The notes beneath the pieces were generated by a model, which had not been told where the DNA came from, ran no database searches, and saw nothing but the letters and a program-made list of their open reading frames with translations. Positions 8,898-31,163 of a stretch of DNA of 64,000 bases are shown here, one piece after another (the stretch's first letter is position 1; every line of letters begins with the position of its first letter). The stretch is from contig CAXXVZ010000002.1 of NCBI GenBank assembly GCA_963678065.2, positions 224,001 through 288,000 on the forward strand. The letters run 5' to 3'. The position numbers and the translations under genes are program-made. The stretch is from Treponemataceae bacterium (lineage in GTDB: Bacteria > Spirochaetota > Spirochaetia > Treponematales > Rectinemataceae).

Positions 8898-8910
8898 GGG
8901 ATAAGGAAGT

Positions 8911-9816: not shown

Positions 9817-9829
9817 TTCCGGCCCCCCT

Positions 9830-10723: not shown

Positions 10724-10772
10724 TTCTCCGGAAAGGTGGCGGACGGCGGGACTCGCGGCTCCGCGAACGAAC

Positions 10773-10814
10773 CCGGGGCTGGCGTAGCGGGACTTTCCGC
10801 TACGCTAGCCCCGG
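10773..10814. terminator. Long stem-loop downstream of the SBP gene (partial terminator or mRNA stabiliser)
   Basis: CCGGGGCTGGCGTAGCGGGA-CT-TTCCGCTACGCTAGCCCCGG; 20-nt arms with 2 mismatches. Confidence 0.6.
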
Positions 10815-10828
10815 ATCGGAAACGATGC

Positions 10829-12094: not shown

Positions 12095-12140
12095 GAATGC
12101 CTCCTTGAAATGATTCTGCGTTTCCACATGAAGATTTATG

Positions 12141-12272: not shown

Positions 12273-13493
12273 TTAGTAGTCGCGATGGCGGTCGAACTCG
12301 TCCAGCATGGCCATGAAATTGTCGTACTTCGTGCCCACGGCTACGGAGTGGCTCGAGCCGAAAATGTAGCCGCCGGGACGCCCGTCGGGCCCCGGTGTCT
12401 TTCCCGCGGCGAGCGCCGCGCGCACATCGGCCCGAACTTCCTCCATCGATCCGTCGACGAGGTGCTCGACGGGAAGGCCGCCCCACTGGCAGATCCTGTC
12501 CCCGTACGCGGCCCTGACGCCCGCGAGGTCCATGCCCGCGGTCGGCTGGATGGACTGGTAGCAGGCGTAGCCTATTTCGGCAAACTGGTCCATGAGCTCG
12601 GTGTTGTTTCCGCAGGCGTGCTTGAACACCGGCAGACCGTACTCTTCCGCGAGTATGCGCACGCGCTTTTTCGCGAAGTCCGTGACGTAGCGGCGGAACA
12701 TGTCCGGAGAAATCATGGGGCCCGTCTTGTAGGCGAAATCCTGGGCCCACATCACGGCGTCCTGGCCGGGGCGTATCATGGCGCGGTCGCGCGCGCAGGC
12801 GCGTCGGAACTGTTCGCGGGCGACGGCGAGGGCGAGATCCGGCTGCAGCGCATACTCGCACAGCGAGCGCTCCGACAGCGGCGAGTTCGTTCCCGTAAAG
12901 AAAGGCAGCTCCGATTCGTCGCCCGCGGCCCAGAGAATGTACCTGTCGGCGCCCAGTTCCCGGATTACATGGTCGACGACTTCGAAGATGGAGGGATCAG
13001 GCGCTTCGACTGCGGAAAGATCGCTCTCCGCGACAGTGCCATGCGCAGACACCGTAGCGGGCATCCCACCGGGAACGCCGATCTCACGCTCCCACTCGCC
13101 GGGGTCCTCGACGATCGAGATGTCCATCGTGGCCTCGGAGAGCCTGTAGACGCGCCCCTCGCGGTCGCGCCAGGTGCCCTCGGCGATTTTCGCGGGAGCC
13201 TCGGGCCTGTAGCCCTTGGGAGGCACCGTGCCGAAGGCCATGGCGTTCACGTTGACGATATCGTAGACGCCGAGCTTCCGGTACAGTTCGACGGAATCTT
13301 CCTTCCAGCTCTGGACGACCTCGTCGCGCCGTCCCTCCCAGAACGCGATCTGGGACTTGGCTTTGGCCCTGAGGTAGGTCTCGTGTCCGAGAATCCGCTC
13401 TGCAGTATCGAAATCGATGGCGAACTCGCCGGCCGGAATCCTGTCCGGCTGTTCATGGGCGAGGGCTGCCCTGACGCGCTCTTTGGAATTCAC
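12273..13493 (-). CDS. Uroporphyrinogen decarboxylase (UroD/MtaA-CmuA) family protein
   Basis: N-terminal MNSKERVRAALAHEQPDRIP; motifs DFAYKTGPMISP, KHACG and GGYIFGSSHSV. Confidence 0.85.
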   Translation of the reverse strand: MNSKERVRAALAHEQPDRIPAGEFAIDFDTAERILGHETYLRAKAKSQIAFWEGRRDEVVQSWKEDSVELYRKLGVYDIVNVNAMAFGTVPPKGYRPEAPAKIAEGTWRDREGRVYRLSEATMDISIVEDPGEWEREIGVPGGMPATVSAHGTVAESDLSAVEAPDPSIFEVVDHVIRELGADRYILWAAGDESELPFFTGTNSPLSERSLCEYALQPDLALAVAREQFRRACARDRAMIRPGQDAVMWAQDFAYKTGPMISPDMFRRYVTDFAKKRVRILAEEYGLPVFKHACGNNTELMDQFAEIGYACYQSIQPTAGMDLAGVRAAYGDRICQWGGLPVEHLVDGSMEEVRADVRAALAAGKTPGPDGRPGGYIFGSSHSVAVGTKYDNFMAMLDEFDRHRDY

Positions 13494-13560
13494 GGATACC
13501 TCCCTTGTCCCGCATGCGAATCAGGCGGGGACTTCCGCCACTCCCACCCTGCGTGAGAAC

Positions 13561-13617
13561 AGTATAGGGGGCGATTCCGGGAAGCCGATATGTCAGCCTT
13601 GCCGGGAAACTTGTCAA
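13561..13617 (-). promoter_or_regulatory. Second copy of the activator-dependent promoter, upstream of the UroD-family gene
   Basis: AGTATAGG, CGATATGTCAGC and TTGTCAA blocks all lie exactly 1420 bp from the first copy. Confidence 0.7.
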
Positions 13618-13671
13618 TTTACCGCCGGAACCGGAACAATATCCGAAATTCCTGAAAATCAGGCCTGGATC

Positions 13672-14655
13672 CTAAATCCCGCAGTATTCCAGAACCGCCC
13701 GGTATCCCCATTCGTCCCACTCCTCTTTGACCCCGATACCCGGAAGGTCGGGATAGACCTTGACGATGAGGCAGCCGTCGAAAATCCGGCACATGGTCAG
13801 GGTCTGTTCCCGGATATAGTCGCGGTCCCCCGTCGGCAGGACTTTCTGGATGTCGATGGGGCTCCAGAGGGCCACGCGGCGCCTGCGGAACAGGGCAAGG
13901 AGGTCCTCCATGTCGTAGACCGTCGGCTGGTCGAACTGGAAAGCGTCCACGCCGCAATCGATCAGGTCATCCAGTATGGCACGATTCTGGCCGCAGCTGT
14001 GCATGAGCACCTTCATGCCCGCTTCGTGGGCCATGCCCATAAGGCGGGAATAGAGATCCTTGAAGTAGTCTCTGAACATGGAGGGGGAAAAGAGCAGTCC
14101 CGTCTGGGTCCCCATATCCTCGCCGATCATGATCGCTTCGGCTCCGGCCTTCGCTGAGGCCAGGATGAGGCTCTCATACAGTTCCGCCACGCGCTCGTGC
14201 ACGGCACAAAGCTCTTCCGGATAGAGGGCCATATCCAGGAGGTAGACCTCGAGCTTTCGCAGGTAGCGCGCGTTGTCGAAGACCCAACCGCCGATGCTGG
14301 CGACGCGGTACTTTCCCCCATCCGGGTCTTCGGCGAAGCCGGCGCGGATCCGCTGGGCTGCCTTGTCAATATCGTAGGCGGGCGCGCGGAAGGATTTCAG
14401 CCCCTCCCAGGTCGGAAGGGCTGGGGTATGGATTTCTCCTTTGACCGGACCATCCATCATGCGGACCCAGAGATTGCCCCACATATCGTCGTAATATTCT
14501 TTGTTGTCCTCTTTCCAGCGCTTTTGGACATAGCCCTCGGGACTTCCCGGAAAGCCGAACACCATGTCGCAGAGGCGGCCCCGGTCGAAGGTCAGTCCGG
14601 GGCGCAGGGCTCCGGTCTGATTCAGGTTTGCGAGAACGATTTCCCTCGAAGTCAT
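13672..14655 (-). CDS. Uroporphyrinogen decarboxylase family protein
   Basis: Start MTSREIV after an AGGAGAGG SD; motifs DMWGNLW, EDMGTQTGLLFSP, MHSCG and DIQKVLP. Confidence 0.85.
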   Translation of the reverse strand: MTSREIVLANLNQTGALRPGLTFDRGRLCDMVFGFPGSPEGYVQKRWKEDNKEYYDDMWGNLWVRMMDGPVKGEIHTPALPTWEGLKSFRAPAYDIDKAAQRIRAGFAEDPDGGKYRVASIGGWVFDNARYLRKLEVYLLDMALYPEELCAVHERVAELYESLILASAKAGAEAIMIGEDMGTQTGLLFSPSMFRDYFKDLYSRLMGMAHEAGMKVLMHSCGQNRAILDDLIDCGVDAFQFDQPTVYDMEDLLALFRRRRVALWSPIDIQKVLPTGDRDYIREQTLTMCRIFDGCLIVKVYPDLPGIGVKEEWDEWGYRAVLEYCGI

Positions 14656-14751
14656 TCTTCCTCTCCTGTAGAATAGGTAATTGTATTTTATATCCATCAA
14701 AACGTGTAAACTATGGAAAATGGTGACATTATTTTGTACTCTGGTATCATT

Positions 14752-15687
14752 ATGACCGAATCTGGATTTCGGGGAAGGTTGATTGTCAATTCCGTCTGTC
14801 CACCTGTCGAACTGGATGGTCCGCTGAAGACGGCGATCGAAGCCATCCACGCCAGCTGGCGTTTTCCCGCAGAGAGAAACGACGGGCGGAGAGAACACCG
14901 GCACGAGGTCTTTCACTTCGTCGCGGTGACCGGCGGACGCGGATCTTTCCTTATCGAGGGCGAAAACTGTCCCTTCGACGGCCCCAGCCTCTTCCTCGTC
15001 GATCCTTTCGTCCCCCACGTTTTTTCCACCCGGGCGGCGGAATGCGCCGAATATCACGAGTTCACCTTCGGCGTCCGGGGAAAATCGGCGCCCCGCGGTT
15101 GGGGCGAGTTGCTGACGGCCGTCTTCATGAAGCCCTCTTTATCGGGCCGGTATCCCATTCCCTCCGTTCTGGTCCTGGATGAAGATTCATTCGCCCTGAC
15201 CGGATCCCTGATCAAGGGTATAACCCGAATACTGGTTTCCCGCTCTCCCTCGCCGCTCTTTTCTTCGTATATCAGGATGCTGATCGCATGCGCCTTCGAG
15301 CGCGTCGAAGCGGGGGAACCCGGCGCGGCGGGAAAAGAGGCGTGCGATCCTCTCGAAAAGGCGAAGGCATATCTGGAGCTGCGCTACTCGGAGCGCTTCG
15401 ATCTCGCGCGTTTGGCGGCGGCCGCAGGTCTGTCCGAGAAACATCTCTGCCGCGCCTTCGGGAAGCGCTACGGCACGACGCCCTTCCGCATGAAGCGTGA
15501 GCTCGCGATGAGGAGCGCCGGACGTCTTCTGAGTTCCACGCGGTACCCGATCAAGTCCGTGGCCGAGACTGTCGGATTCGACGACATGTACCATTTTGCC
15601 AAGGCTTTCCGGGCCTGGAGCGGGATGCCGCCGGGGCGCTTCCGGGCCGAGCGGAGCGGCGGGAAGACGGAGCTCCCCGAAGCGTGA
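14752..15687 (+). CDS. AraC family transcriptional regulator (cupin + HTH)
   Basis: Cupin HRHEVFH; HTH motifs LSEKHLCRAF and GFDDMYHFAKAF; start could be 14713. Confidence 0.85.
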   Translation: MTESGFRGRLIVNSVCPPVELDGPLKTAIEAIHASWRFPAERNDGRREHRHEVFHFVAVTGGRGSFLIEGENCPFDGPSLFLVDPFVPHVFSTRAAECAEYHEFTFGVRGKSAPRGWGELLTAVFMKPSLSGRYPIPSVLVLDEDSFALTGSLIKGITRILVSRSPSPLFSSYIRMLIACAFERVEAGEPGAAGKEACDPLEKAKAYLELRYSERFDLARLAAAAGLSEKHLCRAFGKRYGTTPFRMKRELAMRSAGRLLSSTRYPIKSVAETVGFDDMYHFAKAFRAWSGMPPGRFRAERSGGKTELPEA

Positions 15688-15708: not shown

Positions 15709-16125
15709 TCAGTTTGTGGCGGATGCGCACCCGGCACAGAGACCCTCGATATAAATCTGTATCGATTCGGCGAGGAAACCCTCGGGAAGGGCGAAGGACG
15801 CAGGAAGGGCGGGAACCTGGAGGCGGGGAAGGTCGGATACCGAGCCGCAGACGCGGCAGAGAAAATGGACGTGGGGCGAAATGTCCGCGTCGAAGCGGAG
15901 CTCCGTCCCCGAGATGGTGAGTTTCTGCGCGAGGCCGGAGCGGGCGAAGAGATCGAGGGTGTTGTAAACGGTCGTGCGGGAGAGCGTCGCGATCTCGGGC
16001 GCGAGGGTGGCATGAATGCCGTCCGCCGAAGGATGCGCGCGGGTCGCGGCGAGAGTTTCGTAGATGCGGATGCGCTGGAAGGATGGCTGGATGCCGCGTT
16101 CACGCAGTAAATCGGCGGTACTCAT
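15709..16125 (-). CDS. perR: Fur family peroxide stress regulator, PerR-like
   Basis: Motifs QRIRIY, HPSAD, TTVYNTL, HVHFLCRVC and terminal CAGC; adjacent to rubrerythrin. Confidence 0.8.
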   Translation of the reverse strand: MSTADLLRERGIQPSFQRIRIYETLAATRAHPSADGIHATLAPEIATLSRTTVYNTLDLFARSGLAQKLTISGTELRFDADISPHVHFLCRVCGSVSDLPRLQVPALPASFALPEGFLAESIQIYIEGLCAGCASATN

Positions 16126-16149
16126 GCCTTCCTTCCTTGGAATTCGCGC

Positions 16150-16698
16150 TTATTTGAAGTACCGGGCGAGAAGTCCGCGGAATGCGGAACCGTGGCGGGC
16201 CTCGTCCTTGCACATCTCGTGGACAGTGTCGTGGATGGCGTCGTAGCCGAGTTCCTTGGCGCGCTTCGCTATCTTGAGCTTGCCCTCGCAGGCGCCGTAT
16301 TCGGCGTCGGCGCGCAGCATGAGGTTGGTCTTGGTGTCGGCGTAGACGACTTCGCCGAGAAGCTCGGCGAAGCGGGAGGCGTGATCGGCCTCTTCGTAGG
16401 CGATGCGGCGGTAGGCCTCGGCGACCTCGGGATAGCCCTCGCGGTCGGCCTGGCGGCTCATGGCGAGATACATTCCGACTTCGGTGCATTCTCCGGTGAA
16501 GTTCATGCGAAGACCCTGGACGACTTCCTCGTCGAGCCCCTTCGCGACGCCGATGCGGTGCTCATCGGCCCAGACGGCGCTGGAGGCCGCTGTCTTCTCG
16601 ACAAATTTCTCTTTGGGGGCGCCGCACTGGGAGCACTTCGCAGGAGTTTCCTCGCCGATGAAGATGTAGCCGCAGACCGAGCATACGAAGGTTTTCAT
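16150..16698 (-). CDS. rbr: Reverse rubrerythrin (N-terminal rubredoxin, NADH peroxidase)
   Basis: CSVCGY...CSQC followed by ferritin-like [14 protein letters not shown] and DEARH. Confidence 0.92.
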
Positions 16699-16724
16699 GT
16701 TCTCTCCTTGAATTAAGTACACTG

Positions 16725-16770
16725 TTGTATTAAGTACAATACTTATACACCATGATTCGGAAATATGCAA
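16725..16770 (-). promoter_or_regulatory. Sigma70 promoter of rbr-perR with downstream inverted repeat (candidate PerR box)
   Basis: Minus strand TTGCAT-N17-TATAAG; palindrome TTGTA-TTAAG-TACAA at 16725-16739. Confidence 0.6.
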
Positions 16771-16867
16771 GCCTGATCTGTGGTTTGATTTTTGGTTGAG
16801 GCAACACGGCCACATCCGAATGAACGAAACCCGAGGCCAAGCTTCAAGGTGTGGACTCGCGTGCGAA

Positions 16868-17662
16868 TCAGCGGGGTTCTTTCCTGTTCGTTCCGACTCC
16901 GCGCAGAAGATCGCTCAGCGCTGCGCCGGCGCGCCTGGTCTCGGCGATGAACGCGTCCATCTGGTCTTCCATTCTTTCCCGCGGCCCGGAAATGCCGATC
17001 GCCGCTTCGACGACTCCCTCGAAATTGTAGACCGGCGCCGCGACGCAGATCACGCTTTTCTCATTTTCTTCTATATCTGTCGCGTATCCCCTCGACCTGA
17101 CGGCGGTCAATTCCTGAGCAAGTTCTCCGGGGTCGACGATAGTGCGGTCGGTGTACTGTTCAAGAGGAGCGCCGCCTAAAAGGCGATCGAGGCGCTCCAC
17201 GTCCAGCGCGCAGATGAGGCATTTGCCGACAGCGGTGCAATGCAGGTCCTCGGTCTCGCCGATGTTCGTGTTGGCCGCTATCGTCTTGGCGGCCCGCTCC
17301 CTGTCGATGAATACAGCCTTGTTTCCCGACAGCACCGCGAGATGGGCGTTCTCTTTCGTCGTATGGGCAAGCCGCTTCAGAATGGGAGACGCGAGATCGG
17401 TGATCTTGAGCTGGTCGTGGAGAGCTGCCGCGAGCTTGTAGATGCCGAAACCGAGACGATACGCCTTTCTGCTCTCGTCCTGTCTGACGAGCCCGAATTT
17501 CATCAGCGTCGAGAGAAGCCTGAACACCGAACTTCTGTCGATGCCTATGGTCTCCGACAGACCGTCCAGACCGCAGGCGATCTCGGGGTTTTCCGCGATG
17601 GTGAAGAGGAGACTCAGAGCCCGGTCGACTGACTGGACGCCCGTGGATTCGCTTTTCGGCAT
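16868..17662 (-). CDS. IclR family transcriptional regulator
   Basis: Motifs [31 protein letters not shown] and CVAAPV. Confidence 0.92.
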
Positions 17663-17712
17663 GCGGACTACTATACGTCCCGGTTCGGGGAAATGCAAGA
17701 ATCACAATTTCA

Positions 17713-17747
17713 TTGACTAATACACAATAGTATTTCATAATACACAA
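17713..17747 (+). promoter_or_regulatory. Sigma70 promoter of the transketolase operon, overlapped by a direct repeat (candidate IclR operator)
   Basis: TTGACT-N17-CATAAT; TAATACACAA at 17718 and 17738. Confidence 0.6.
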
Positions 17748-17762
17748 CACAGGAGATTACTG

Positions 17763-18602
17763 ATGCATTCCACCCCTCCGACGATCGGTGAACTCGAATC
17801 GAAGGCACGAGAAATACGCCGACTCATCCTGCGGACGACCCATCACGCCGGCATGGGTCACACGGGCGGCTCCCTCTCGGAAGCGGATCTGCTCGCCGCG
17901 CTCTTCTTCAAGGTCCTCAGAAACCGCGATCCCGCCAACCCGGACAGGATCGACAGGGACCGCTTCATTCTCTCCAAGGGACACGCATCTCCGGGCTACT
18001 ACGCGGCGCTGGCGTTGCGCGGCTATTTCCCGCCAAAGACGCTCGAGAGCTTCGACACTCTGGGCAGCATCCTGCAAGCCCATCCCGACATGAAGAAGAC
18101 TCCCGGAGTCGACATGTCCTCGGGTTCGCTCGGACAAGGGCTGTCCTGCGGCCTCGGCATGGCTCTGGCCGCGCTGAGGGACCCGGCCATGGCGGGAGTC
18201 AGGATCTTCGTCCTCATGGGCGACGGCGAACTGCAGGAAGGCCAGATTTGGGAAGCGGCGCTCTACGCGGGCGCACACCGACTTCCGGGGCTGATCGGCA
18301 TCGTCGACATGAATGGCGTGCAGCTGGCCTCGAAGACCGACGAGGCGGTGGGGCTTTATCCCCTCGCGGAAAAATGGAGAGCCTTCGGGTGGACCGTGCT
18401 CGAAACCGATGGACACGCGATGGCTTCCCTCGCACAGACGCTCGAGAGCGCGCGCGAACTCGCCTCTTCGGGGCCGGTGCTGGTCATCGCCCGAACGGTC
18501 AAGGGCAAGGGAGTCTCGTTCATGGAAGGGCGATATGAATGGCACGGGAAGGCGCCCGATGACCGCGAGTTCGAGCTCGCGATGCGGGAGATAGGCGAAT
18601 GA
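17763..18602 (+). CDS. Transketolase, N-terminal ThDP-binding subunit (split type)
   Basis: Motifs GHTGGSLS, DRFILSKGHA, SGSLGQG, GDGELQEGQIWE and TVKGKG. Confidence 0.92.
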   Translation: MHSTPPTIGELESKAREIRRLILRTTHHAGMGHTGGSLSEADLLAALFFKVLRNRDPANPDRIDRDRFILSKGHASPGYYAALALRGYFPPKTLESFDTLGSILQAHPDMKKTPGVDMSSGSLGQGLSCGLGMALAALRDPAMAGVRIFVLMGDGELQEGQIWEAALYAGAHRLPGLIGIVDMNGVQLASKTDEAVGLYPLAEKWRAFGWTVLETDGHAMASLAQTLESARELASSGPVLVIARTVKGKGVSFMEGRYEWHGKAPDDREFELAMREIGE

Positions 18603-19582
18603 AGACGGGAGACATGATAGCGCAGAGGACCGCCTTCGGCAGGGCCCTCGTCGATATAGCGGACAACTATCCCCGGATGATGGTATTCGACACCGACGTC
18701 TGCACCTCGACCCAGACGGCGGCATTCAGGCAGGCCTTCCCCGACAGGTTTTACGAGATGGGAATCGCCGAGGCGAACGCGGTCTGCGCGGCCGCCGGCA
18801 TGGCCGCATGCGGCTTCGTGCCCTGGGTATCGGCCTTCGCGGTATTTCTCGCGAAGCGGGCCCTGGACCAGATCCGGGTCTCGGTGGCACAGGCCAGGCT
18901 TCCCGTGAAACTGAACGGCGCCTACGGAGGGCTGCCCTCGGGGCGCGGCGGCGCCACGCACTCTTCCGTGGAGGATATCGCGGTCATGCGCGCGATGCCG
19001 AACATGACAGTCCTCTGCCCCGCCGACGCTGTCGAGACGATGGCCATGACGGAACTCGCCATGAGGATCCCCGGTCCGGTCTACCTGCGGACCGTCCGCT
19101 GCGAAGTGCCGGTGATATTCGATCCGGGATGGATTCCGGAAATCGGCAGAGCCGCCGAGCTCCGACCGGGAAGCGATGTCGCGATCATCTCGGAGGGCAT
19201 GATGACGCAGGTCGCGCTTGAGGCCGCGTCGATCCTCGCGGGGCGGGGAGTCCGCGCGCGGGTCCTCCATTTCGGCACCATCAAGCCCTTCGACGAGGAA
19301 GCCACTGTAGCCGCGGCGCGCGAATGCGGCGCGATCCTCACGCTCGAAAACCACTCGGTCATAGGCGGACTCGGCGGGGCGGTGTGCGAAACGGTGGCTG
19401 CGCGCGCGCCGTGCCGCGTGAGGCGGATCGGTTTCCCCGATGTGTTCATGGAGTCGGGGGACGACGCGGCCATCTTCGAAGGATTCGGAATGAATGCGCA
19501 AGGAGTCGCGGCAGAGGCCCTGAGACTCCTGGCCGACATGCGCCCCGGATACAGGGCAGTGGGCCTGAAGGAGGCACGATGA
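18599..19582 (+). CDS. Transketolase, pyrimidine-binding/C-terminal subunit
   Basis: Motifs MGIAEAN, GATHSSVED, GPVYLR, IKPFD and ENHSVIGGLG. Confidence 0.92.
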   Translation: MKTGDMIAQRTAFGRALVDIADNYPRMMVFDTDVCTSTQTAAFRQAFPDRFYEMGIAEANAVCAAAGMAACGFVPWVSAFAVFLAKRALDQIRVSVAQARLPVKLNGAYGGLPSGRGGATHSSVEDIAVMRAMPNMTVLCPADAVETMAMTELAMRIPGPVYLRTVRCEVPVIFDPGWIPEIGRAAELRPGSDVAIISEGMMTQVALEAASILAGRGVRARVLHFGTIKPFDEEATVAAARECGAILTLENHSVIGGLGGAVCETVAARAPCRVRRIGFPDVFMESGDDAAIFEGFGMNAQGVAAEALRLLADMRPGYRAVGLKEAR

Positions 19583-20208
19583 AGATTGCCATCATCAATG
19601 AGACAAGCGCCGCGGATCGGAACGACGACATCCTGCGCGCGCTCGGGGGCCGCAGACACGAACTCATCAATTGCGGCATGAAAAAGAGCGGAGAGCAGCC
19701 GGAACTCACCTACATTCACACAGGCTTCCTCGCGGCCCTGATTCTCGCCGCGGGCAAAGCGGATTTCGTCGTAGGGGGCTGCGGGACAGGCCAGGGATTC
19801 ATAAACTCGGTGCTCCAGTACCCCGGTGTGACCTGCGGGCACATCCAGAGCCCGCTCGATGCCTTCCTGTTCGCGAGGATCAACGGGGGAAACTGTGTCA
19901 GCCTCGCGCTCAACCAGGGTTACGGCTGGGCGGGGGACGTCAATCTGCGTCTGCTGTTCGACCAGCTTTTCACTCCGGAGTGGAGCTCAGGTTACCCCGA
20001 ACACCGGCGGGAATCCCAGGCGCGTTCGCGCTCGCTTCTCCGCGACATTTCCGGCGCCACGCACCGGACGATGGCGGAGATACTCGGCGCGCTCCCGGAC
20101 GGGATTGTCCGTCCCGCCCTCAGGTATCCCGGAATAGAAGAACTTCTTCTCTCGCAACCCTGCGCGGACGGAAAGCTCGACGAAGCGATACGCGGGAGCT
20201 ACGCATGA
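19579..20208 (+). CDS. RpiB/LacA/LacB family sugar isomerase, DhuI-like subgroup
   Basis: Motifs MKIAIINE, LTYIHTG, DFVVGGCGTGQG, INGGN and GYGWAG; C-terminal GYPEHR extension. Confidence 0.8.
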   Translation: MKIAIINETSAADRNDDILRALGGRRHELINCGMKKSGEQPELTYIHTGFLAALILAAGKADFVVGGCGTGQGFINSVLQYPGVTCGHIQSPLDAFLFARINGGNCVSLALNQGYGWAGDVNLRLLFDQLFTPEWSSGYPEHRRESQARSRSLLRDISGATHRTMAEILGALPDGIVRPALRYPGIEELLLSQPCADGKLDEAIRGSYA

Positions 20209-22127
20209 ACGGGATCCCATCCTCCGCGGCGAGGACCGCGCGCGCCAAGGCAATCGCATCGGCGGGGGGCATAGAAGCCGCGCTTTCTTCGGGTGGACTT
20301 CCCGCATTTCAGGACGTATCGCTCTCCGAGGCACTCGTCCTGGGGCTCCTGCGCCAGAGAGTGAGGACCTACATCGGCGTCTTCGGACACGGGACGACCG
20401 AACTTGGCGAAGCCCTCCGGGTCTACGAGTCGGAAGGGCTCGTGAAGGTCGTCAATGTCAGAAGCGAAATCGAGGCCTCGCACATCGCCACCGCCCTGCG
20501 CTGGCACTACGGGGAAGCCGCGGCGGTGTTCACGTCCATAGGGCCGGGCGCGCTCCAGGCCATGTCGGCCTCTCTCGTGCCCCTTTCGAACGGCATCGGC
20601 GTCTATTACCTCCTTGGGGGCGAGACCACACAGGACGAGGGCTACAACATGCAGCAGATTCCCCGGCCGGAGCAGGGGCTTTTCCCGAGACTCTTCGGCA
20701 CGATGGGGACCGCCTACGAGCTGCACACCGGCGAGGCGCTGCCGGCTGCGCTCCGGCGAGGGGCGGCGTCCGTCTTCAGTCCGCTCCAGCCGGGTCCCTG
20801 CTATCTCATTCTTCCCATGAACGTTCAAGCATCTGTCATGCGGGATTTCAACATCGCCGAGCTTCCCCGCAAGCCTGAATATCCGCCCCTCGCCCCGGCA
20901 GTGAACACCCTCTTCGAACAAGCCGTCGAACAGATCCGCGCAAAGGAAAGAATAACCGTGAAGACCGGACACGGGGCGATCTGGCTCGACCGGGACACGC
21001 TCGCTGAACTCCTCGAACGGAGCGACGCCGTCTACGTCCACGGTCCTTCGGCTGTCGGCATCCTGCCCGGAGATCATCCCCGGAACATGACGGTGGGAGG
21101 ATCCAAGGGCTCGGTCGCCGGGAACGCGGCCATGGCGGAGGCGGAGCTCGCCATCACCATCGGCGCAAGGGCCGTCTGCCAGTGGGATTCCTCGGGGACG
21201 GCGTGGAAGAGCACGAAGGCGGTGATCGCCATAAACAGCCGTCACGAGGATGCCTCCCACTACAACGGAAGCCTCTGCCTCGTGGGCGACGCGCAACAGG
21301 TCACGGCGCGGCTTGTCGAAGCGTTGAGGGCAGCCGGGGTGGACAAGGGCGGCTGGGCGGAAACCTCGGCCGGGAAAGAGCCGGTCAGGTCAGCCTGGTT
21401 CCTGGTCAACAGCCGCAGGAGAGAGGCGCTGGACAGCTTCCTCGCCGGACGCGTGTCGACGCCTCCCCTGCCCGATCCCAAGTTCGGCGTCGAACTCCTG
21501 ACCCAACCGGCGGCCATCGGAATCGCGATCGATTTTGCGCACGCAAAGGGAGCGGTCAAATACTTCGACGCGGGCGACGTGCAGGCGAACGGCTTCCAGC
21601 TGACCGAAGACGACTCGCCCGGGATGACGATTACCGATACGGGAGCTTCCTACATGGGATTCGCGTCCTGCGGCATACTCGCCTCGGCCCTCGTCGAGGT
21701 CCCGGATTACCCGATCGCTTTCACGGGCGACGGAAGTTTCACGATGAATCCGCAAGTCCTCATCGACGCGGCAGCCCTGGACCTGCACGGCATGATCATC
21801 CTGTTCGACAACCGGAGGATGGCCGCGATTTCGGGCTTGCAGCAGGTCCAGTATGGCGTCGACTTCAGGACGGACGACACGGTGTCCGTGGACTATGCGA
21901 GGCTCGCCTCCTGCGTCGCGGGAGTCAGGGGCTTCGACGGCGGACACAGCGCAGGGGAGTTTGCCGCAGCGCTCGAAGCAGCCTTTGAATACCCCGGCCT
22001 CTCGCTCGTCCACGTACCTGTCTATTCAGGGCCCGACGAGCGCGGCGGACTCGGGGCGTACGGAGACTGGAATGTCGGCTGCTGGTGCGAGAGAGTGCAG
22101 AAAGAAAAGCACCGGATCGGATTGTGA
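20205..22127 (+). CDS. ThDP-dependent enzyme, divergent IolD-like
   Basis: Motifs VFGHG, RSEIEASH and TSIGPGA; ThDP motif GDGSF...DN. Confidence 0.75.
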   Translation: MNGIPSSAARTARAKAIASAGGIEAALSSGGLPAFQDVSLSEALVLGLLRQRVRTYIGVFGHGTTELGEALRVYESEGLVKVVNVRSEIEASHIATALRWHYGEAAAVFTSIGPGALQAMSASLVPLSNGIGVYYLLGGETTQDEGYNMQQIPRPEQGLFPRLFGTMGTAYELHTGEALPAALRRGAASVFSPLQPGPCYLILPMNVQASVMRDFNIAELPRKPEYPPLAPAVNTLFEQAVEQIRAKERITVKTGHGAIWLDRDTLAELLERSDAVYVHGPSAVGILPGDHPRNMTVGGSKGSVAGNAAMAEAELAITIGARAVCQWDSSGTAWKSTKAVIAINSRHEDASHYNGSLCLVGDAQQVTARLVEALRAAGVDKGGWAETSAGKEPVRSAWFLVNSRRREALDSFLAGRVSTPPLPDPKFGVELLTQPAAIGIAIDFAHAKGAVKYFDAGDVQANGFQLTEDDSPGMTITDTGASYMGFASCGILASALVEVPDYPIAFTGDGSFTMNPQVLIDAAALDLHGMIILFDNRRMAAISGLQQVQYGVDFRTDDTVSVDYARLASCVAGVRGFDGGHSAGEFAAALEAAFEYPGLSLVHVPVYSGPDERGGLGAYGDWNVGCWCERVQKEKHRIGL

Positions 22128-22184
22128 ACGCAGACTGTGGGCATTGATCGTGAAAGTTGATTGTGAACGCCGACTGAGGATACT
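22120..22184 (+). repeat. Degenerate tandem array of five 13-nt units in the intergenic region
   Basis: GATTGTGAACGCA/GACTGTGGGCATT/GATCGTGAAAGTT/GATTGTGAACGCC/GACTGAGGATACT. Confidence 0.6.
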
Positions 22185-22247
22185 GCCTTTGAGCAGCGAC
22201 ATCGCGCCGCGCTTGGCCAGTGACCGCAGTGCGGCGCAGGGAGAAAC

Positions 22248-23792
22248 ATGATGACGGGACAAGGACCGAAAAAACTGGGTTATTACGTGAACGGCGGCTG
22301 GAAGGAATCCCTGACAGCCACATACATGGAATGCTTCGACCCATCGGAAGGAGAGGTGATCGCGCTCGCGCCGCAGTGCACGGCGAATGAAGTGGAGGAA
22401 GCCATCGAAGCGGCGAAGAATGCCTTCCTGTCCTGGTCTTCGCTGCCCGCGACGCGGCGCGTCCAGGTGCTCTTCAGGATGAAATCCCTCATGGACAGCC
22501 ATCTGGACGAACTCAGCTCCCTCACGGCGCGGGAACACGGCAAGGTCTGGGACGAGGCGATGGGCGATGTGCTCAAGGCGACCGAGGTCATCGAGTTCGC
22601 CTGCGGCATTCCCCAGCTCATGAAGGGCACGGCCCTCATGGACTGCAGTCCCGGGTACGACACGGTGCAGTGCATGGAGCCGCTGGGCGTATTCGCCGGG
22701 ATCGTACCCTGGAATTTCCCGGCCATGATCCCCATGGGCTGGATGGCGCCTCTGTGCATAGCGACCGGCAACACCATGGTGCTGAAGGCAGCGAGCTTCA
22801 CGCCGCAGACCTCGATGCGCATCATGGAACTCTGGACCGAGGCGGGCCTGCCTCCGGGCGTCCTCAACCTCGTCACCTGCTCGCGCAGAGAGGCGGAGAT
22901 TTTCCTCAGGCATCCCGGCATAAAAGGGGTGAGCTTCGTGGGATCTACGGAGGTCGGCCGACACATCTACGAGACGGCCGCCGCCAACGGAAAACGGGTA
23001 CAGTGCCTCACTGAAGCCAAAAACCACGCACTCGTCCTCGCGGACGCGGCGCTCGAACGGACCGCGGGTGGAATCATCAATTCAGCCTGCGGATGCGCGG
23101 GCGAGCGCTGCATGGCGCTGCCCGTCATCGTGGCCGAAGAGGAGATCGCAGACAGACTTGTGGCTCTCCTGGTCCGAAAGATGGCGGAACTGAAAATCGG
23201 CCCCGCGAATGACAAATCGAGCCGGCTCGGACCGCTCGTGAACGACGCGCACAGGCAAAGCGTCGTGGCCTGGATTGAAAGAGGGCTCGCTGAGGGCGCC
23301 ACACTCGTGCTCGACGGGCGCGGAGTCGTCGTTCCCGGCCATGAGAGGGGATTCTACCTCGGCCCTACGCTATTCGATGACGTACAGCCCGGCATGAGCA
23401 TCGGCGATCGGGAAATCTTCGGACCTGTCGCCTGCGTGAAGCGGGTGAAGGATTTCGAGGAAGGGCTTGCGGTCATGAACGCGAACGAGTTTGCCAATGG
23501 CTCCGTCATCTACACCCAAAGCGGCCACCATGCGAGGGAGTTCGTGCGCCGGACCCACGGAGGCATGGTGGGAGTGAATGTCGGAATCCCCGTGCCGCTC
23601 GGAATTTTCGGCTTCACCGGACACAAGAATTCTTTTTTCGGCGACCTGCACGCCATGGGCACGGACGGAGTGCGGTTTTTCACGGAACTCAAGAATGTCA
23701 CGACGCACTGGTTCTCCGAAGAGGAAGCCCGCGAGGGGCATGTGGCAAACAGCTGGGACGGCACGATCGTCATGCCGGCGCAAAAACTATAA
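22248..23792 (+). CDS. mmsA: CoA-acylating (methyl)malonate-semialdehyde dehydrogenase
   Basis: Motifs PWNFPAMIP, SFVGST, GKRVQ, AKNH, GCAGERCMA, EIFGP and VGVNVGIPVP. Confidence 0.9.
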   Translation: MMTGQGPKKLGYYVNGGWKESLTATYMECFDPSEGEVIALAPQCTANEVEEAIEAAKNAFLSWSSLPATRRVQVLFRMKSLMDSHLDELSSLTAREHGKVWDEAMGDVLKATEVIEFACGIPQLMKGTALMDCSPGYDTVQCMEPLGVFAGIVPWNFPAMIPMGWMAPLCIATGNTMVLKAASFTPQTSMRIMELWTEAGLPPGVLNLVTCSRREAEIFLRHPGIKGVSFVGSTEVGRHIYETAAANGKRVQCLTEAKNHALVLADAALERTAGGIINSACGCAGERCMALPVIVAEEEIADRLVALLVRKMAELKIGPANDKSSRLGPLVNDAHRQSVVAWIERGLAEGATLVLDGRGVVVPGHERGFYLGPTLFDDVQPGMSIGDREIFGPVACVKRVKDFEEGLAVMNANEFANGSVIYTQSGHHAREFVRRTHGGMVGVNVGIPVPLGIFGFTGHKNSFFGDLHAMGTDGVRFFTELKNVTTHWFSEEEAREGHVANSWDGTIVMPAQKL

Positions 23793-23799
23793 AAAGAAC

Positions 23800-23845
23800 T
23801 TGACAGTTTCGGAAGTCTGGTCAATACTTACTTTAACGTTAATGT
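23800..23845 (+). promoter_or_regulatory. Sigma70 promoter with LacI-type operator
   Basis: TTGACA-N17-AATACT followed by the near-perfect CG-centred palindrome ACTTTAACGTTAATGT (23830-23845). Confidence 0.6.
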
Positions 23846-23876
23846 GACAATCCATTACAACTATGGAGATCACGCT

Positions 23877-24965
23877 ATGGAAACCGTAAGGATAGGAATT
23901 ATCGGATGCGGACGCATATCAGATCTCCACGCGGCGGGTTACCTGTCGAATCCTCGCGCAAAAATCGTGGCTGTCTGCGACGCGGACCAGGCCAAGGCGG
24001 AGGCCAAGGCCCGGGAGTGGGGCGCCGGGACCTCATATTCCGATTACCGCGCTTTGCTCGATGACCAGAGCGTGGATGCCGTCGAAATCATCACTCCTCA
24101 GCGACTCCATGAAGCAATAGTCCTCGATGCCTTGGCAGCGGGGAAACATGTCAGCGTGCAGAAACCGATGACCACCGACATGGACAGTGCCGACCGGATG
24201 GTCGCCGCGGCGGACGCGGCCGAAGGACAGGTCGCGAAACTTTTTGAAAACTATGTCTTCTACCCTCCATTAGTCTTGATGAAACACATTATCGATGAAG
24301 GAGCAATTGGCGAACCGACGAGCATGCGGATCAAATTCATTTCCGGCGTGCGCGGAGGCTGGGATGTTCCGGATTCGGCGTGGAATTGGCGCAAAGACGA
24401 GCATCGGCGCGGCTACGGGATGCAGACCTTCGACCATGGCCACCACATGTGGTCGGTCGCGTGGTTCCTCATGGGCGAAGTGGAGCGCGTCCTCGCCTGG
24501 ATCGACTCGGTGGACGGAGTCATAGACTGCCCGGCCGAGATCATCTGGAAGTATTCGGGGGCACCGAAGTATGGCTCCTGCGATTACTCCCACGGAACCG
24601 AACTTACAATTCCCTCCCGCTATTATGCGAACGACGAGTGGTTTGAGGTCACCGGCAGCAAAGGCATTGTGTCGGTGTCGCGCTGCACCGGGAATGTCCA
24701 AGAGGGTGCACCCCTGCGCCTGTTCGCAGACGGACGCTGGACCGAATACCCGGATGTCGCCTCGGACTGGGCAGAAGGATTCAAGGGAGCGACGGCCAAT
24801 TTTGTCTCCGCAGTCCTGGGTGAAGAAACACCACTGCTCAGCGTCAAACAAGGCCGCGAAATACTCCGGATGGATCTTGCAGTTCAGGAATCTGCGCGAA
24901 TGCACCGCGAAATCGTGCTCGCCGAATTCCGAGGCTCACCAGCGACGGTGCAAGAACCGCAATAA
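23877..24965 (+). CDS. Gfo/Idh/MocA family oxidoreductase
   Basis: Motifs GCGRIS, ITPQRLH, VQKP (variant of EKP) and FDHGHH; GGAG SD. Confidence 0.88.
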   Translation: METVRIGIIGCGRISDLHAAGYLSNPRAKIVAVCDADQAKAEAKAREWGAGTSYSDYRALLDDQSVDAVEIITPQRLHEAIVLDALAAGKHVSVQKPMTTDMDSADRMVAAADAAEGQVAKLFENYVFYPPLVLMKHIIDEGAIGEPTSMRIKFISGVRGGWDVPDSAWNWRKDEHRRGYGMQTFDHGHHMWSVAWFLMGEVERVLAWIDSVDGVIDCPAEIIWKYSGAPKYGSCDYSHGTELTIPSRYYANDEWFEVTGSKGIVSVSRCTGNVQEGAPLRLFADGRWTEYPDVASDWAEGFKGATANFVSAVLGEETPLLSVKQGREILRMDLAVQESARMHREIVLAEFRGSPATVQEPQ

Positions 24966-25037
24966 AAGAAGAGACTGCGCTAAGGATGAGGAGGCAAAGT
25001 CAAGTGATCGACCTCGCCTTTTGCGCGGAAATATTTG

Positions 25038-25100
25038 TTGACAGGCAGAAAAGGTGGTGGTAAGATCGAAATTGGTAAGACAACCTTACCAATTTCGATC
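25038..25100 (+). promoter_or_regulatory. Sigma70 promoter with perfect palindromic FadR/GntR-type operator
   Basis: TTGACA-N17-TAAGAT; GATCGAAATTGGTAAG-ACAAC-CTTACCAATTTCGATC (25064-25100). Confidence 0.75.
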
Positions 25101-25134
25101 CCCGAGTTCCAATTCAGTGGTAGGAGGCTGCAGA

Positions 25135-25569
25135 ATGTTCCTGCTAGCGGATGAACACTCTGAATTCGACAATATCCTATGGGATTCAATCGCCGCCAAA
25201 GCAAAAAATGGTGAATTGGCTGTGGCGGACCTTTCGGATTGCTTCAAAGTGCTCTGCGCAGGGTGCAACCACATCGATGAGCTGCGCTTCGAACTCAGAA
25301 GTTACTCCGGCTCTTACCAATTCGTTTTCGATGGGGAACGCTATGCCCTGGTTTTCCGCTCCGGCGCCTGCTCGGCCTTCTCCGGCGATGTCGAACAGCC
25401 GGATATCACGGTGTGGATGGGTCTCGATGTTGCGCGCGACCTCCTTATGGGTAATGTCAATTCCGGCGCGGCCCACATGAACGGTGACATACGATACAAA
25501 GGCACCAAGAATGGTGCGATAACGCTCCAGTCGGTATTTGAACTCTTCCTCGACGAACTCAGCGCTTGA
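25135..25569 (+). CDS. SCP2 sterol-binding domain protein
   Basis: C-terminal YQFVFDG...PDITV...LLMGNVNSGAAHMNGDIRYKG fits the SCP2 pattern; AGGAGG SD. Confidence 0.7.
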   Translation: MFLLADEHSEFDNILWDSIAAKAKNGELAVADLSDCFKVLCAGCNHIDELRFELRSYSGSYQFVFDGERYALVFRSGACSAFSGDVEQPDITVWMGLDVARDLLMGNVNSGAAHMNGDIRYKGTKNGAITLQSVFELFLDELSA

Positions 25570-25619
25570 GCGCCGCGGGCGCTATCCGCGATGCAATTCT
25601 CGCAAGGACGGGCAGAACG

Positions 25620-27893
25620 ATGAAGTACGTGAAATTCGGAGTGATTGGAGGAGGTAGCGCCTTCAATTTCCATGTCAACGGCGTCCGGGACTCGGAGCTC
25701 CTGCGCTTCGTGGCGATCTACGACACGAACATCGAGAATGCCAGGAAGGTTGCCAGGCGTTTCAAGGATGGCCATCTGGAAGTCTATGAAACGCTGGATG
25801 CGATGCTCGATTCGGACATCGATGCAGTCTTGGTCATGGTTCCTCACGCCTACCACGAGCGGATCGTCATCCGGTGCGCCGAGAGAGGCAAACATGTGCT
25901 TTGCGAGAAGCCGATGGGAACCACAGTGGAAGCTTGCAGGAACATGATCGCCGCTGCTCTCAGGAACAAGATCAAATTCATGATTGCGGAAAATCATCGT
26001 TTCCTCCCTGCCCATACCTGGATCCGCAATGCGATTCAGCAGGGTCTCGTCGGCGACGTCCTGATGGTCCGCGCATACGAAGGTGTCAATGAGATACCGG
26101 GTCTCAGCATCAGTGGCTTCTGGAAGGGCGACCCGATCAAGGCAGGGGGTGGCTCGCTCATGGACATGGGCGCACACAAGTTCGCCACCCTCGAATACAT
26201 TCTGGACAGCCGCTGCACCGAGGTTACCGCAATCCTGGCCAAGCAGGCGATCAACCTGCCGGAAAAAGCCGAAGACAACGCCATCACGATGCTCCGCTTC
26301 AGCGACGGCACCATCGGCGAAATGTCCGTAAGCTTTACACAGATGACTCCGCCCTTCAACAGCCTGGAGATTTACGGAACCGAGGGCAGCATCTTTGAAA
26401 ACCACGCATGGGAGAAGCCCGTCCGGATCTATTCATTCTCGAAGTCGATGGGGGAGAACCAGCAAGTATGGTATGAACCCGAGATCGAGCACGCGCCCTT
26501 CCCGGGCTACTACCCGATTTCGGTCCGGCACGAGGATGAGCATTTCGCACGATGCATACTTGAGCACAGGGAACCCGAATTCAGCCCCGAGGACTCGATG
26601 AGCGCCATCGAGTGCATCTTGGCAGGATATCTCTCCTCTATCGAGAGGCGGCCGGTCGCCCGACAGGAGATTCTCGACCTTGCCGATAAGGGCCTTACCG
26701 GCCAAATTTTGGAACGACTCGCCGAGTCGATTCCCGTCAATCCCAAACTCCCCAAGGTAAAGAGCATGAAAGCAGTAGGATTCGACAAGAGACGGGCTGC
26801 AGTGATCATGGAGAAGCTGGATCTCGACCTTCTCATAGCGAGTTCGCCAGTCAACACATATTACCTGAGCGGACTACCCGTTCTCCACAGCGCTCCCAAT
26901 CCCATCCTCGAGGCGCTGTCCAATCAGTACCCGAACTTCGCGATGATTCGGAGGGAAGGCGAGGGTTCGATCATCCACTGGGATGTCTTCCGTAGCGTCC
27001 AGGATCTGTGCTGGGCGGCTGACGCAGTAGGCGTACACAATGTGCAGGATGCGCAGGCCGCGCTTGTCGCCAAGATCAAAAAATGGGGCCTGGTCGGCAA
27101 GCGGGTCGGTGTGGAGTCCACGGCGCCCAAATTCATTCTGGATGCAATCGGATCGGACAAGGTGGCCATGAAAATAATCGAGGCCGACCCCGCTTTCCAG
27201 GAGATGCGTCTCATTAAAACTGACAAGGAGGTCGCCTGCATCGCCGCGGCGACTTCGATCACCGAGAAAGCGATCATGAAGTGTGCGGCCGCCCTCAAGG
27301 AAGGGATCACCGACAACGAGCTCCTCGATATCGGAAAAAGAGCGATGCTCGAGGAGGGAGCGGAAGGCTGGAATCACCTGACCCTCTCCATCGGCGGATC
27401 GGACCCCGAAGCCCCTGGCGTTGGCACGATTGTCCGGAAGGGCGACATAGTGCGTCTGGACTTCGGAGCTATCTATAAAAACTATGTCGCCGATGTGAAC
27501 GCGGAGTTCGTGATCGGCGAGGTGCCCGGGAAGGCGGCCGCGCTCATTGAAGGACTCCTCGAATTCCAAGGCTACTTCGAGTCGCGCATCAGACCCGGGG
27601 TTCTGATGCGGCAGCTCGGCGAGGAAGCCGTGGCCTGGTACGAGGGGAAATACCCCGAAGGCATCGCCTTCTGCATCGGCCACAGCATAGGCCTCGAATG
27701 TGAAGACCTGCACCTTTTCGGGGCGATGGGATCGCAGGACCGCGTCTTCGAGAAGAATATGGTCTTCGAAATCGAGGCCTGGGAAAACTATGAGGGCTAC
27801 CTCATCGGTGTCGAGGACTGCTATGTAGTCACCGACTCAGGCTGCCGCAAGATGACCAGCCTCGACAAGCGCATCGCCGCGATCAAGGAGTGA
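25620..27893 (+). CDS. Fusion of Gfo/Idh/MocA oxidoreductase with a creatinase-N/M24 (Xaa-Pro peptidase fold) domain
   Basis: N-half motifs GVIGGG, VPHAYH, CEKP and GGGSLMDMGAH; C-half motifs LDFGAIYKNYVAD, GHSIGL, EIE and VED. Alternative TTG start at 25566. Confidence 0.85.
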   Translation: MKYVKFGVIGGGSAFNFHVNGVRDSELLRFVAIYDTNIENARKVARRFKDGHLEVYETLDAMLDSDIDAVLVMVPHAYHERIVIRCAERGKHVLCEKPMGTTVEACRNMIAAALRNKIKFMIAENHRFLPAHTWIRNAIQQGLVGDVLMVRAYEGVNEIPGLSISGFWKGDPIKAGGGSLMDMGAHKFATLEYILDSRCTEVTAILAKQAINLPEKAEDNAITMLRFSDGTIGEMSVSFTQMTPPFNSLEIYGTEGSIFENHAWEKPVRIYSFSKSMGENQQVWYEPEIEHAPFPGYYPISVRHEDEHFARCILEHREPEFSPEDSMSAIECILAGYLSSIERRPVARQEILDLADKGLTGQILERLAESIPVNPKLPKVKSMKAVGFDKRRAAVIMEKLDLDLLIASSPVNTYYLSGLPVLHSAPNPILEALSNQYPNFAMIRREGEGSIIHWDVFRSVQDLCWAADAVGVHNVQDAQAALVAKIKKWGLVGKRVGVESTAPKFILDAIGSDKVAMKIIEADPAFQEMRLIKTDKEVACIAAATSITEKAIMKCAAALKEGITDNELLDIGKRAMLEEGAEGWNHLTLSIGGSDPEAPGVGTIVRKGDIVRLDFGAIYKNYVADVNAEFVIGEVPGKAAALIEGLLEFQGYFESRIRPGVLMRQLGEEAVAWYEGKYPEGIAFCIGHSIGLECEDLHLFGAMGSQDRVFEKNMVFEIEAWENYEGYLIGVEDCYVVTDSGCRKMTSLDKRIAAIKE

Positions 27894-31139: not shown

Positions 31140-31163
31140 TGGCGCTCGGCAACAGATAACCAG

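Follow-up and report, generated by a model that had tools for sequence, protein, structure and literature searches.

An undescribed spirochaete operon centred on a sister enzyme of IolD, with a probable five-carbon acid intermediate

We describe an operon in a 64,000-nucleotide stretch of DNA from a Treponemataceae bacterium (assembly GCA_963678065.2, contig CAXXVZ010000002.1, positions 224,001 to 288,000), hereafter the window. The operon encodes a split transketolase (TK; tktA and tktB), an RpiB isomerase, a thiamine diphosphate (ThDP) enzyme related to IolD and a (methyl)malonate-semialdehyde dehydrogenase (MMSDH). The catabolic system, with the IolD sister enzyme at its core, is undescribed, and the operon probably degrades a sugar-like compound via a five-carbon acid. 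No description of the gene set or of the proposed intermediates was found in the literature searched, most subscription journals lying outside it.

An IolD sister enzyme in a repressor-controlled operon

The best family model for the ThDP enzyme was TIGR04377 (IolD), on which it scored 119 bits, below the cut-off of 715. The genome's own IolD, which scores 896 on this model, is about 24% identical to it. In an alignment with four IolD-clade sequences and one acetohydroxyacid synthase (AHAS)-like paralogue, the ThDP enzyme has the catalytic Glu, GDG..N, FGHG and a C-terminal WxVG; FGHG and WxVG are common to it and IolD, and are missing from the AHAS-like paralogue. A FastTree analysis of 101 rows, from which one was dropped as too gappy and in which the four IolD-clade sequences and three other ThDP enzymes served for comparison, recovered the family as one clade with a support of 100. 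The IolD-clade sequences were its sister relative to the three other ThDP enzymes, a placement that carries a long-branch warning in this run. By these comparisons the enzyme belongs to an uncharacterised sister clade of IolD and is not IolD. The original prediction had called it IolD-like.

A PDB search with the ThDP enzyme found no close relative (best E 1e-14), and an Atlas search gave unnamed or generic ThDP clusters only. When the window enzyme was used for a homologue search, 4919 of 8000 scored candidates passed E 0.001, with identities of 53% or more throughout the best 120; with an alphaproteobacterial member, 4979 of 8000 scored candidates passed E 1e-100. The nearest named homologues are from Spirochaetota, and the named carriers include Lacrimispora indolis, Oceanispirochaeta, Salipiger, Phaeobacter piscinae, Labrenzia and two Sinorhizobium species. 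Among genomes of the host's phylum, 26 of 401 carried the family; the counts were 6 of 301 for the phylum of genome G449 and 4 of 401 for the class of genome G448 (centre genomes counted). Many homologues are automatically annotated as IolD in public records, so inositol use may be wrongly assigned to their hosts.

The host genome has canonical iolG (483 against a cut-off of 355), iolD (896 against 715) and iolE (419 against 290) on contig C3, iolB (242 against 205) on C5, and kduI (433 against 250) with KduD- and KdgK-like neighbours on C4. The aldehyde dehydrogenase (ALDH) of its iol cluster is not an MMSDH. An anti-correlation with the iol pathway had been expected and did not appear: among 61 relatives, canonical IolD was present in 6 of 12 genomes with the ThDP enzyme and in 11 of 49 without it. 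The ThDP enzyme is therefore not a replacement for IolD.

The predicted layout, in which an IclR gene diverges from overlapping tktA, tktB, rpiB and ThDP enzyme genes followed by MMSDH, was confirmed from the open reading frames and their overlaps (Table 1). A 4-base ATGA overlap joins tktA to tktB, tktB to rpiB, and rpiB to the ThDP enzyme gene; MMSDH follows after 120 bp. After another 84 bp lies a gene of the Gfo/Idh/MocA family (Gfo), which the prediction had missed. Family scans detected no IolB, IolE, KduI, KdgK or class-II aldolase gene within the operon. Contigs of two public runs (X3 and X4) matched window positions 16700-34900 with zero differing letters, an agreement that is not independent because both runs may be the source sample. 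Two RNA libraries yielded only scattered, short, near-identical contigs.

The gene set is a genuine operon under repressor control, with a divergent iclR. A promoter scan found 5 promoter-like sites against 2.0 expected, including those at 17713, 23800 and 25038. The tkt-side site is TTGACT-17-CATAAT at 17713-17741, followed by AGGAG at 17751, and the site at 23800-23828 stands directly before the Gfo gene. The -35/-10 pair was common to seven aligned intergenic regions, and between its hexamers, at 17725-17735, lies a conserved CAA-N5-TT(G) element. The CAA, TT and TGAC-type columns were invariant in all seven, and this element is a candidate IclR operator. The ATG of iclR begins 8 bases past a -10-like TATAGT (17662-17675, minus strand), both being conserved in the seven aligned loci, and the iclR transcript is probably leaderless. 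A TTG at 17698 was rejected as an artefactual upstream start, the conserved ATG giving a protein of 264 aa.

Table 1. Operon features in window coordinates, and examples from related loci (locus name before the coordinates)
Feature	Position	Strand	Family or basis
IclR-family repressor gene, 264 aa	16868..17662	-	PF01614/PF09339
Divergent promoter region	17663..17762	.	Promoter scan and 7 aligned intergenic regions
tktA, split TK N-terminal (ThDP-binding) subunit	17763..18602	+	PF00456; best PDB 6YAK
tktB, split TK C-terminal subunit	18599..19582	+	PF02779+PF02780; best PDB 6YAJ
rpiB, DhuI-like RpiB/LacAB aldose-ketose isomerase	19579..20208	+	NF006753/PRK09273; PDB 4U8E
ThDP enzyme, IolD sister clade, 640 aa	20205..22127	+	TIGR04377, below cut-off
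MMSDH, CoA-acylating	22248..23792	+	TIGR01722
Gfo/Idh/MocA NAD-dependent dehydrogenase, outside the coordinates of the original prediction	23877..24965 (ATG start)	+	PF01408
Fused TK, examples	L101:12463-14478, L028:11486-13513; also L030-L033, L098		
Gfo-SCP2 fusions	L001:11837-13330, L030:13511-15010, L069:1673-3220		
GH1, sulfatase, GH127 with GH2, or apiosidase-like genes	L128:7650-8906, L078:2572-3918, L070:13666-15129, L072:1154-4990, L071:12012-14114		

Four exclusive lower modules and a five-carbon product

To survey the neighbourhoods, we collected 141 loci (the window, 10 + 12 + 80 from searches, 5 plasmid records and 33 more; L161 and L162 were excluded as gene fragments) and merged them at 90% or higher identity of the ThDP enzyme. 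This left 101 loci, many on short contigs and 59 with 4 kb or more on each side, in which genes within 9 kb of the ThDP enzyme were counted. The ThDP enzyme is the constant core of the system across these loci. Around it, 63 of the 101 carry exactly one of four lower modules, and none carries two. Module A combines IlvD with ALDH (15 of 17 IlvD loci). Module B combines TK with RpiB (23 of 26), and MMSDH is present in 13 of the 26 TK loci, or 13 of the 19 with split TK. Module C consists of a β-keto acid cleavage enzyme (BKACE) with RpiB (17/17), cupin (15) and CoA ligase (13), and module D, in 3 loci, of RpiB with a KduD-like short-chain dehydrogenase/reductase (SDR). Overall, TK was found in 26 loci (19 split, 7 fused), cupin in 20, IlvD/EDD, BKACE and ADP-forming CoA ligase in 17 each, succinate-semialdehyde dehydrogenase-like ALDH in 16, MMSDH in 14 and KduD-like SDR in 3. 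RpiB was present in 47, never alongside IlvD. An IclR gene was found in 53. None of the 101 loci had IolB, IolE, KduI, KdgK, class-II aldolase or transaldolase, and one had PfkB. The modules switch at least five times on the ThDP enzyme tree, which indicates that one enzyme clade serves all four.

These counts bear on the five-gene set of the original prediction. The tktA, tktB, rpiB, ThDP enzyme and MMSDH genes stand together in 11 of the 101 loci. MMSDH is tied to TK, accompanying it in 13 of the 14 MMSDH loci with members of two MMSDH clades, and no kinase or aldolase regularly adjoins the ThDP enzyme, as the predicted kinase- and aldolase-free pathway had it. Transketolase is likewise present, as just one of four interchangeable lower modules, and MMSDH is not obligatory beside it. 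The suggested supply of substrate by a nearby GH105 found no support: such a gene was near the ThDP enzyme in 0 of 101 loci, and the window gene concerned (2052-3116) passes the BglB β-galactosidase model (468 against 420), lies 14 kb off and belongs to a separate cluster.

The IlvD of module A is of the sugar-acid type (PRK06131, 812 against 539; L-arabinonate dehydratase, 672, below 882), and the module C ligase matches the 3-hydroxypropionate-CoA ligase model best (867, below 1300), a C3 hydroxy-acid ligase type. Beside module D, L054 has a CoA synthetase and another SDR, and L046 a CoA synthetase and a CoA transferase; L044, which is related to these loci, has a thiolase and an SDR. The KduD-like reductase of module D is 43-44% identical to the KduD-like gene of the host genome. 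A BKACE gene in the window (27890-28693) was considered as a module C member and rejected, with 27.5% identity to the module C type and a divergent alignment.

Upstream, two exclusive entries were found. One pairs Gfo with sugar transporters of the GPH or ABC type; the other has a Zn-dehydrogenase (Zn-ADH), a molybdenum (Mo) enzyme of the xanthine-dehydrogenase type and TTT or DASS transporters. The Mo enzyme occurred in none of the 51 loci with Gfo, and Salipiger has a third arrangement. A Gfo orthologue lies within 9 kb of the ThDP enzyme in 51 of the 101 loci, including 17 of the 26 TK loci, and belongs to the system as a conserved partner. Its best NCBIfam model is IolG, below the cut-off (105 against 355). 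Conserved binding proteins of the fused-TK loci are ribose-type, and the binding-protein and Gfo matches gave no substrate identity. In 32 of the 51 loci the partner Gfo has a long C-terminal tail, which was an SCP2 lipid-binding domain in all three scanned (Table 1); the window copy is without this domain. The stand-alone SCP2 gene of the window was rejected as a split-off tail of such a fusion (best fusion match 24%, E 0.03). The one clear match that it gave was to the stand-alone SCP2 of L002, and a promoter-like site of its own lies at 25038. In L080, L085, L110 and L114 a rhodopsin gene directly follows the Zn-ADH/Mo/TTT, ALDH and IlvD set. GH1, sulfatase, GH127 with GH2, or apiosidase-like genes stand in or beside a few operons, a hint of a glycosylated or sulfated precursor.

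The best PDB matches of the TK subunits were the two parts of a split TK, 6YAK for TktA (E 1e-83) and 6YAJ for TktB (E 3e-81). TktA has all the histidines of the GH, SKGH, HP and WHG motifs. TktB reads YGGLPSGRGG (Y109, R116, G117) against HAGLTVGEDG of 6YAJ, and thus is missing the canonical His and GEDG motif of the housekeeping transketolase (TIGR00232), of which the genome has a canonical copy on contig C1. In an alignment of 23 subunits (18 split and 5 fused; 3 of the 26 TK loci gave none), Tyr and Arg/Lys occupied the His and Glu columns in all 18 split TktB, while of the genome's 14 other TK-like genes only 1 had Arg at the Glu column. At the Asp column, 12 of the 18 split TktB have Gly/Ala and 6 keep Asp; the 5 fused enzymes all have Asn. 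We take this column to be D469 of E. coli transketolase, which would contact the 2-OH of the acceptor. According to parts of two studies, D469 changes shift the aldehyde specificity of transketolase, and D469T opens access for a carboxylated aldehyde (PMC7661550, PMC5073344). The TktB signature fits a carboxylate-bearing product lacking a 2-OH. The TKs form three lineages on the tree; the divergent fused lineage (about 675 aa), found in place of the split TK, has an insertion in the Pyr domain and an NG[SA]TH motif.

RpiB, the sole copy in the genome by tblastn, passes NF006753/PRK09273 (192 against 137). Its best PDB match is 4U8E (gbs1892, E 1e-41), which we take to be DhuI, and its catalytic Cys, Cys68, lies within GGCGTG. 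MMSDH passes TIGR01722 (524.6 against 448.5), and its top PDB matches are all MMSDHs. Its residues include K110, R287 and the catalytic C288, K110 replacing an Arg of the solved MMSDHs. The MMSDHs of these loci form two clades, 62-81% and 35-41% identical to that of the window; the one second-clade member scanned also passes the model (486 against 448.5). Both clades keep the Arg preceding the catalytic Cys and Arg/Lys at a second site, two basic residues that presumably contact the substrate.

A ThDP lyase or hydrolase would release an aldehyde, ALDH and the RpiB isomerase would both take a 2-hydroxy aldehyde, and BKACE and CoA synthetase would require a carboxylate with an adjacent CH2. The product may then be framed as OHC-(CHOH)k-CH2-COO-, and among C4 to C7 only C5 (k = 2) would suit all four modules. 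The C4 compound (k = 1) would be a substrate for neither TK nor IlvD. From the C6 compound (k = 3), the IolD product, TK would yield malate semialdehyde, which is no MMSDH substrate, and IlvD would lead to 4-hydroxy-2-oxoadipate, for which an aldolase would be needed; none was found in three annotated records. With C7 (k = 4), TK alone would work. Taken by module, IlvD with ALDH would reach a central metabolite, 2-oxoglutarate, from C5 only, TK with MMSDH would require C5 or C7, and the BKACE and CoA synthetase/SDR/thiolase sets would fit C4 or C5. The original prediction had argued for an odd-chain acid; this logic would hold, narrowed to C5, with C7 not favoured. Precedent for the last two sets is given in part of a study of deoxyribose use (10.1101/205583), which proposes that BKACE splits 2-deoxy-3-keto-pentonate to glyceryl-CoA in P. 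simiae, and that a CoA synthetase, a dehydrogenase, a thiolase and a CoA transferase do so in K. michiganensis.

In the proposed pathway, the Gfo dehydrogenase would oxidise an imported small polyol to the substrate of the ThDP enzyme, which would cleave a C-C bond to give X, OHC-CHOH-CHOH-CH2-COO- (3,4-dihydroxy-5-oxopentanoate, a 4-deoxy-penturonate). The likeliest form of this step would be an IolD-type hydrolytic opening of 3,4-dihydroxycyclopentane-1,2-dione. The DhuI-like isomerase would turn X into 2-deoxy-4-keto-pentonate, from which the split TK would transfer C4-C5 to a sugar-phosphate acceptor and free malonate semialdehyde, and MMSDH would convert this to acetyl-CoA, CO2 and NADH. 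Elsewhere, module A would convert X to 2,3-dihydroxyglutarate and then 2-oxoglutarate (ALDH and IlvD), and modules C and D would split 2-deoxy-3-keto-pentonate or its CoA ester to glyceryl and acetyl units. We put the probability that X has five carbons and that the isomerase, TK and MMSDH steps hold at slightly above one half (about 0.55). The opening of a dione by the ThDP enzyme is a tentative proposal with odds of roughly one in three. It is doubtful whether the whole ThDP clade consists of five-membered-ring 1,2-dione hydrolases, ring-contracted counterparts of IolD, in a pathway that degrades a cyclopentane polyol, or a glycoside or acid from which it derives, with carboxylate-adapted TKs that act on malonate semialdehyde. 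The prediction is cheaply testable, because TK could itself form the intermediate from hydroxypyruvate and malonate semialdehyde.

Weighing of the five-carbon reading against its rivals

Several observations weigh against the pathway proposed above. Six Chloroflexota TktB retain the Asp, and this residue is likewise missing from many unrelated split TKs of the genome. The separateness of the two split-TK clades was not formally shown, since their monophyly was not rejected (p-AU 0.055). All 7 fused-TK loci are without MMSDH, and no MMSDH above the cut-off was found in G003, G010, G011, G018, G020, G030, G034 (fused TK) or G452, eight TK-module genomes that are 80-94% complete where a value is given; in G009 and G035 MMSDH is present elsewhere in the genome. 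In the genomes that lack it, the aldehyde must be reduced or decarboxylated, or the fused enzyme acts differently. The loci are related, so that the Fisher p-values overstate the gene associations, and 14 of the 59 well-flanked loci show no module. To our knowledge no cyclopentane polyol is abundant in nature. The genome's IolE as query matched none of the 101 loci and dehydratases are not among the regular neighbours; to form a cyclic dione would thus take two oxidations, a spontaneous elimination or a water-eliminating ThDP enzyme.

It is unlikely, in our estimate, that the same C5 lower pathway is fed by a ThDP enzyme that decarboxylates a linear C6 2-oxo acid. [quoted passage not shown] The mutual exclusion of these two oxidases would suit it, as would the acid transporters (TTT, DASS, TRAP) of the Zn-ADH/Mo and Salipiger versions, the DhuI family of the isomerase and the pairing of RpiB with a KduD-like reductase in module D, which resembles the dhuD-dhuI clusters in the part of PMC12838403 available; Mo enzymes oxidise deoxyribose in P. 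simiae according to part of 10.1101/205583. On the other hand, neither GH105 nor GH88 was near the ThDP enzyme in any of the 101 loci, the genome already has kduI and kduD/kdgK-like genes for DHU, the Gfo versions carry GPH or ribose-type ABC transporters, the Zn-ADH beside the Mo enzyme would be left roleless, and the motifs of the ThDP enzyme are IolD-like, not AHAS-like. Of the two origins suggested in the original prediction, loss of C1 from DHU thus loses its GH105 link and survives only as a general 2-oxo-acid decarboxylation, and IolD-like ring opening is favoured for a C5 dione and not for a C7 one.

We consider it very improbable that a divergent IolD opens a six-carbon inositol-type dione, from a stereoisomer or an O-methyl or deoxy cyclitol, to a 5-deoxy-hexuronate from which TK frees malate semialdehyde. 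The sister position with shared motifs, the best NCBIfam model of Gfo (IolG), the IolM score of the Zn-ADH (205, below 450) and the UroD/MtaA-like genes near 4 loci would agree with it, and the binding protein downstream in the window matches best PDB 4YO7, whose ligand we take to be inositol. However, a C6 product would give MMSDH no substrate, the IlvD route would end at 4-hydroxy-2-oxoadipate with an aldolase found neither in the three annotated records nor by tblastn, IolE and IolB are in none of the 101 loci, and canonical IolD coexists. Also quite improbable is a sulfonate or other non-carboxylate chain end, as in a true variant of the sulfoglycolytic TK (sulfo-TK) pathway, or a promiscuous enzyme family whose four modules handle differing products. 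The fused-TK genomes without MMSDH would fit, and the sulfo-TK architecture likewise pairs split TK with a PF02502 isomerase; some bacteria finish that route with an aldehyde dehydrogenase and a CoA ligase (part of PMC9594981). Nevertheless BKACE, CoA synthetase and thiolase demand a carboxylate, the dehydrogenase scores above the MMSDH cut-off, the sulfo-TK route described in that part of the source is without an IolD-like enzyme, and the modules interleave on a single enzyme tree. A C5 product of the ThDP enzyme is the reading we prefer. Retro-benzoin opening of inosose, cleavage of autoinducer-2/4,5-dihydroxy-2,3-pentanedione (AI-2/DPD), dehydroascorbate, anhydrofructose, 3-ketoglycoside diones and apiose were set aside on carbon count or gene content.

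Neighbouring clusters and comparison with known systems

Downstream of the operon, 25054-34800 (+) holds a second operon with its own promoter-like site, encoding the stand-alone SCP2, the divergent BKACE, SDR, GntR, an NAD epimerase, a 775-aa fusion of Gfo with an M24 peptidase-fold domain, and a sugar ABC transporter whose binding protein is nearest PDB 4YO7. It adjoins the ThDP operon in L002 and L028 too, rearranged. On the other side, 819-12127 (-) carries the BglB-type GH88/105 gene, two Gfo genes, a xylose-isomerase-fold gene, a two-component system and an ABC transporter, and looks like a 3-ketoglycoside-type cluster. UroD/MtaA-fold genes lie at 12273-15057 (-), near the operon in L026 and L074 and within it in L115; their products could demethylate an O-methylated substrate. 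By Pfam, a Fur-family and rubrerythrin pair (15709-16815, -), a trp operon (43449-50434, +) and a cluster of S-Me-THD-like, hydantoinase-like and nucleobase permease genes (51140-55171, +) are ordinary. Elsewhere in the same genome, L164:8337-19041 (genome G000, C5, about 1,030-1,041 kb) is a second split-TK and MMSDH cluster with no IolD-like enzyme, with SDR, Zn-dehydrogenase, xylose-isomerase-fold and branched-chain-type ABC transporter genes, possibly another route to malonate semialdehyde. The MMSDH of L163:8903-19192, a cluster with two transaldolase-family genes and a Zn-dehydrogenase, is nearly identical to that of L164. A further MMSDH cluster, L127:4296-16545, encodes a different ThDP enzyme and a TRAP transporter, along with members of the acetate-kinase and phosphotransacylase families.

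If the C5 reading holds, the system also points to an environmental compound so far unlinked to these genes. Canonical myo-inositol catabolism proceeds through iolG, iolE, iolD, iolB, iolC, iolJ and iolA. The present system resembles it in the Gfo dehydrogenase, the IolD-type ThDP enzyme, an aldose-ketose isomerase, MMSDH and malonate semialdehyde as the C3 end, but is without IolE, IolB, kinase and aldolase, uses an RpiB-fold isomerase and TK instead, and would have an intermediate one carbon shorter. The deoxyribonate pathways, as given in the part of 10.1101/205583 consulted, are similar to modules C and D of related loci in BKACE or the CoA synthetase, SDR, thiolase and CoA transferase; here, however, the entry would be an aldehydo-acid through an isomerase, and the window uses a transketolase. 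The DhuI-DhuD system (part of PMC12838403) shares the isomerase family and, in 3 loci, the KduD-like reductase, which is not in the window operon. Unlike that system, the isomerase here is tied to the ThDP enzyme and has no UGL/GH105, KdgK or KduI neighbours.

The sulfo-TK pathway comprises SqvD, SqwGH, SqwI and SqwF, or a dehydrogenase and ligase at its end, in the part of PMC9594981 available. In both systems a split TK and a PF02502 isomerase would strip a C2 ketol from an unphosphorylated sugar analogue, pass it to a sugar-phosphate acceptor and leave a short aldehyde. SqvD isomerase, sulfoquinovosidase and sulfoacetaldehyde reductase families were absent from the part of the neighbours that was Pfam-scanned, a scan made without a Sqw/Sqv query. 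In contrast to the sulfo-TK pathway, an IolD sister and Gfo stand upstream here, the anion would be a carboxylate, TK would act in a single round where the sulfo-TK route has two, and MMSDH would take the aldehyde. For biocatalysis, a TK that is adapted by nature to a carboxylated aldehyde without a hydroxyl would be of interest. If cyclopentane polyols are indeed the substrates, their unrecognised use would span spirochaetes, Chloroflexota, gut Lachnospiraceae, rhizobia and marine bacteria. If the C5 reading is true, the system is an undescribed catabolic hub with four finishing routes, which would include the formation of 2-oxoglutarate in two steps, new ways into deoxypentonate cleavage and a carboxylate analogue of the sulfo-TK pathway.

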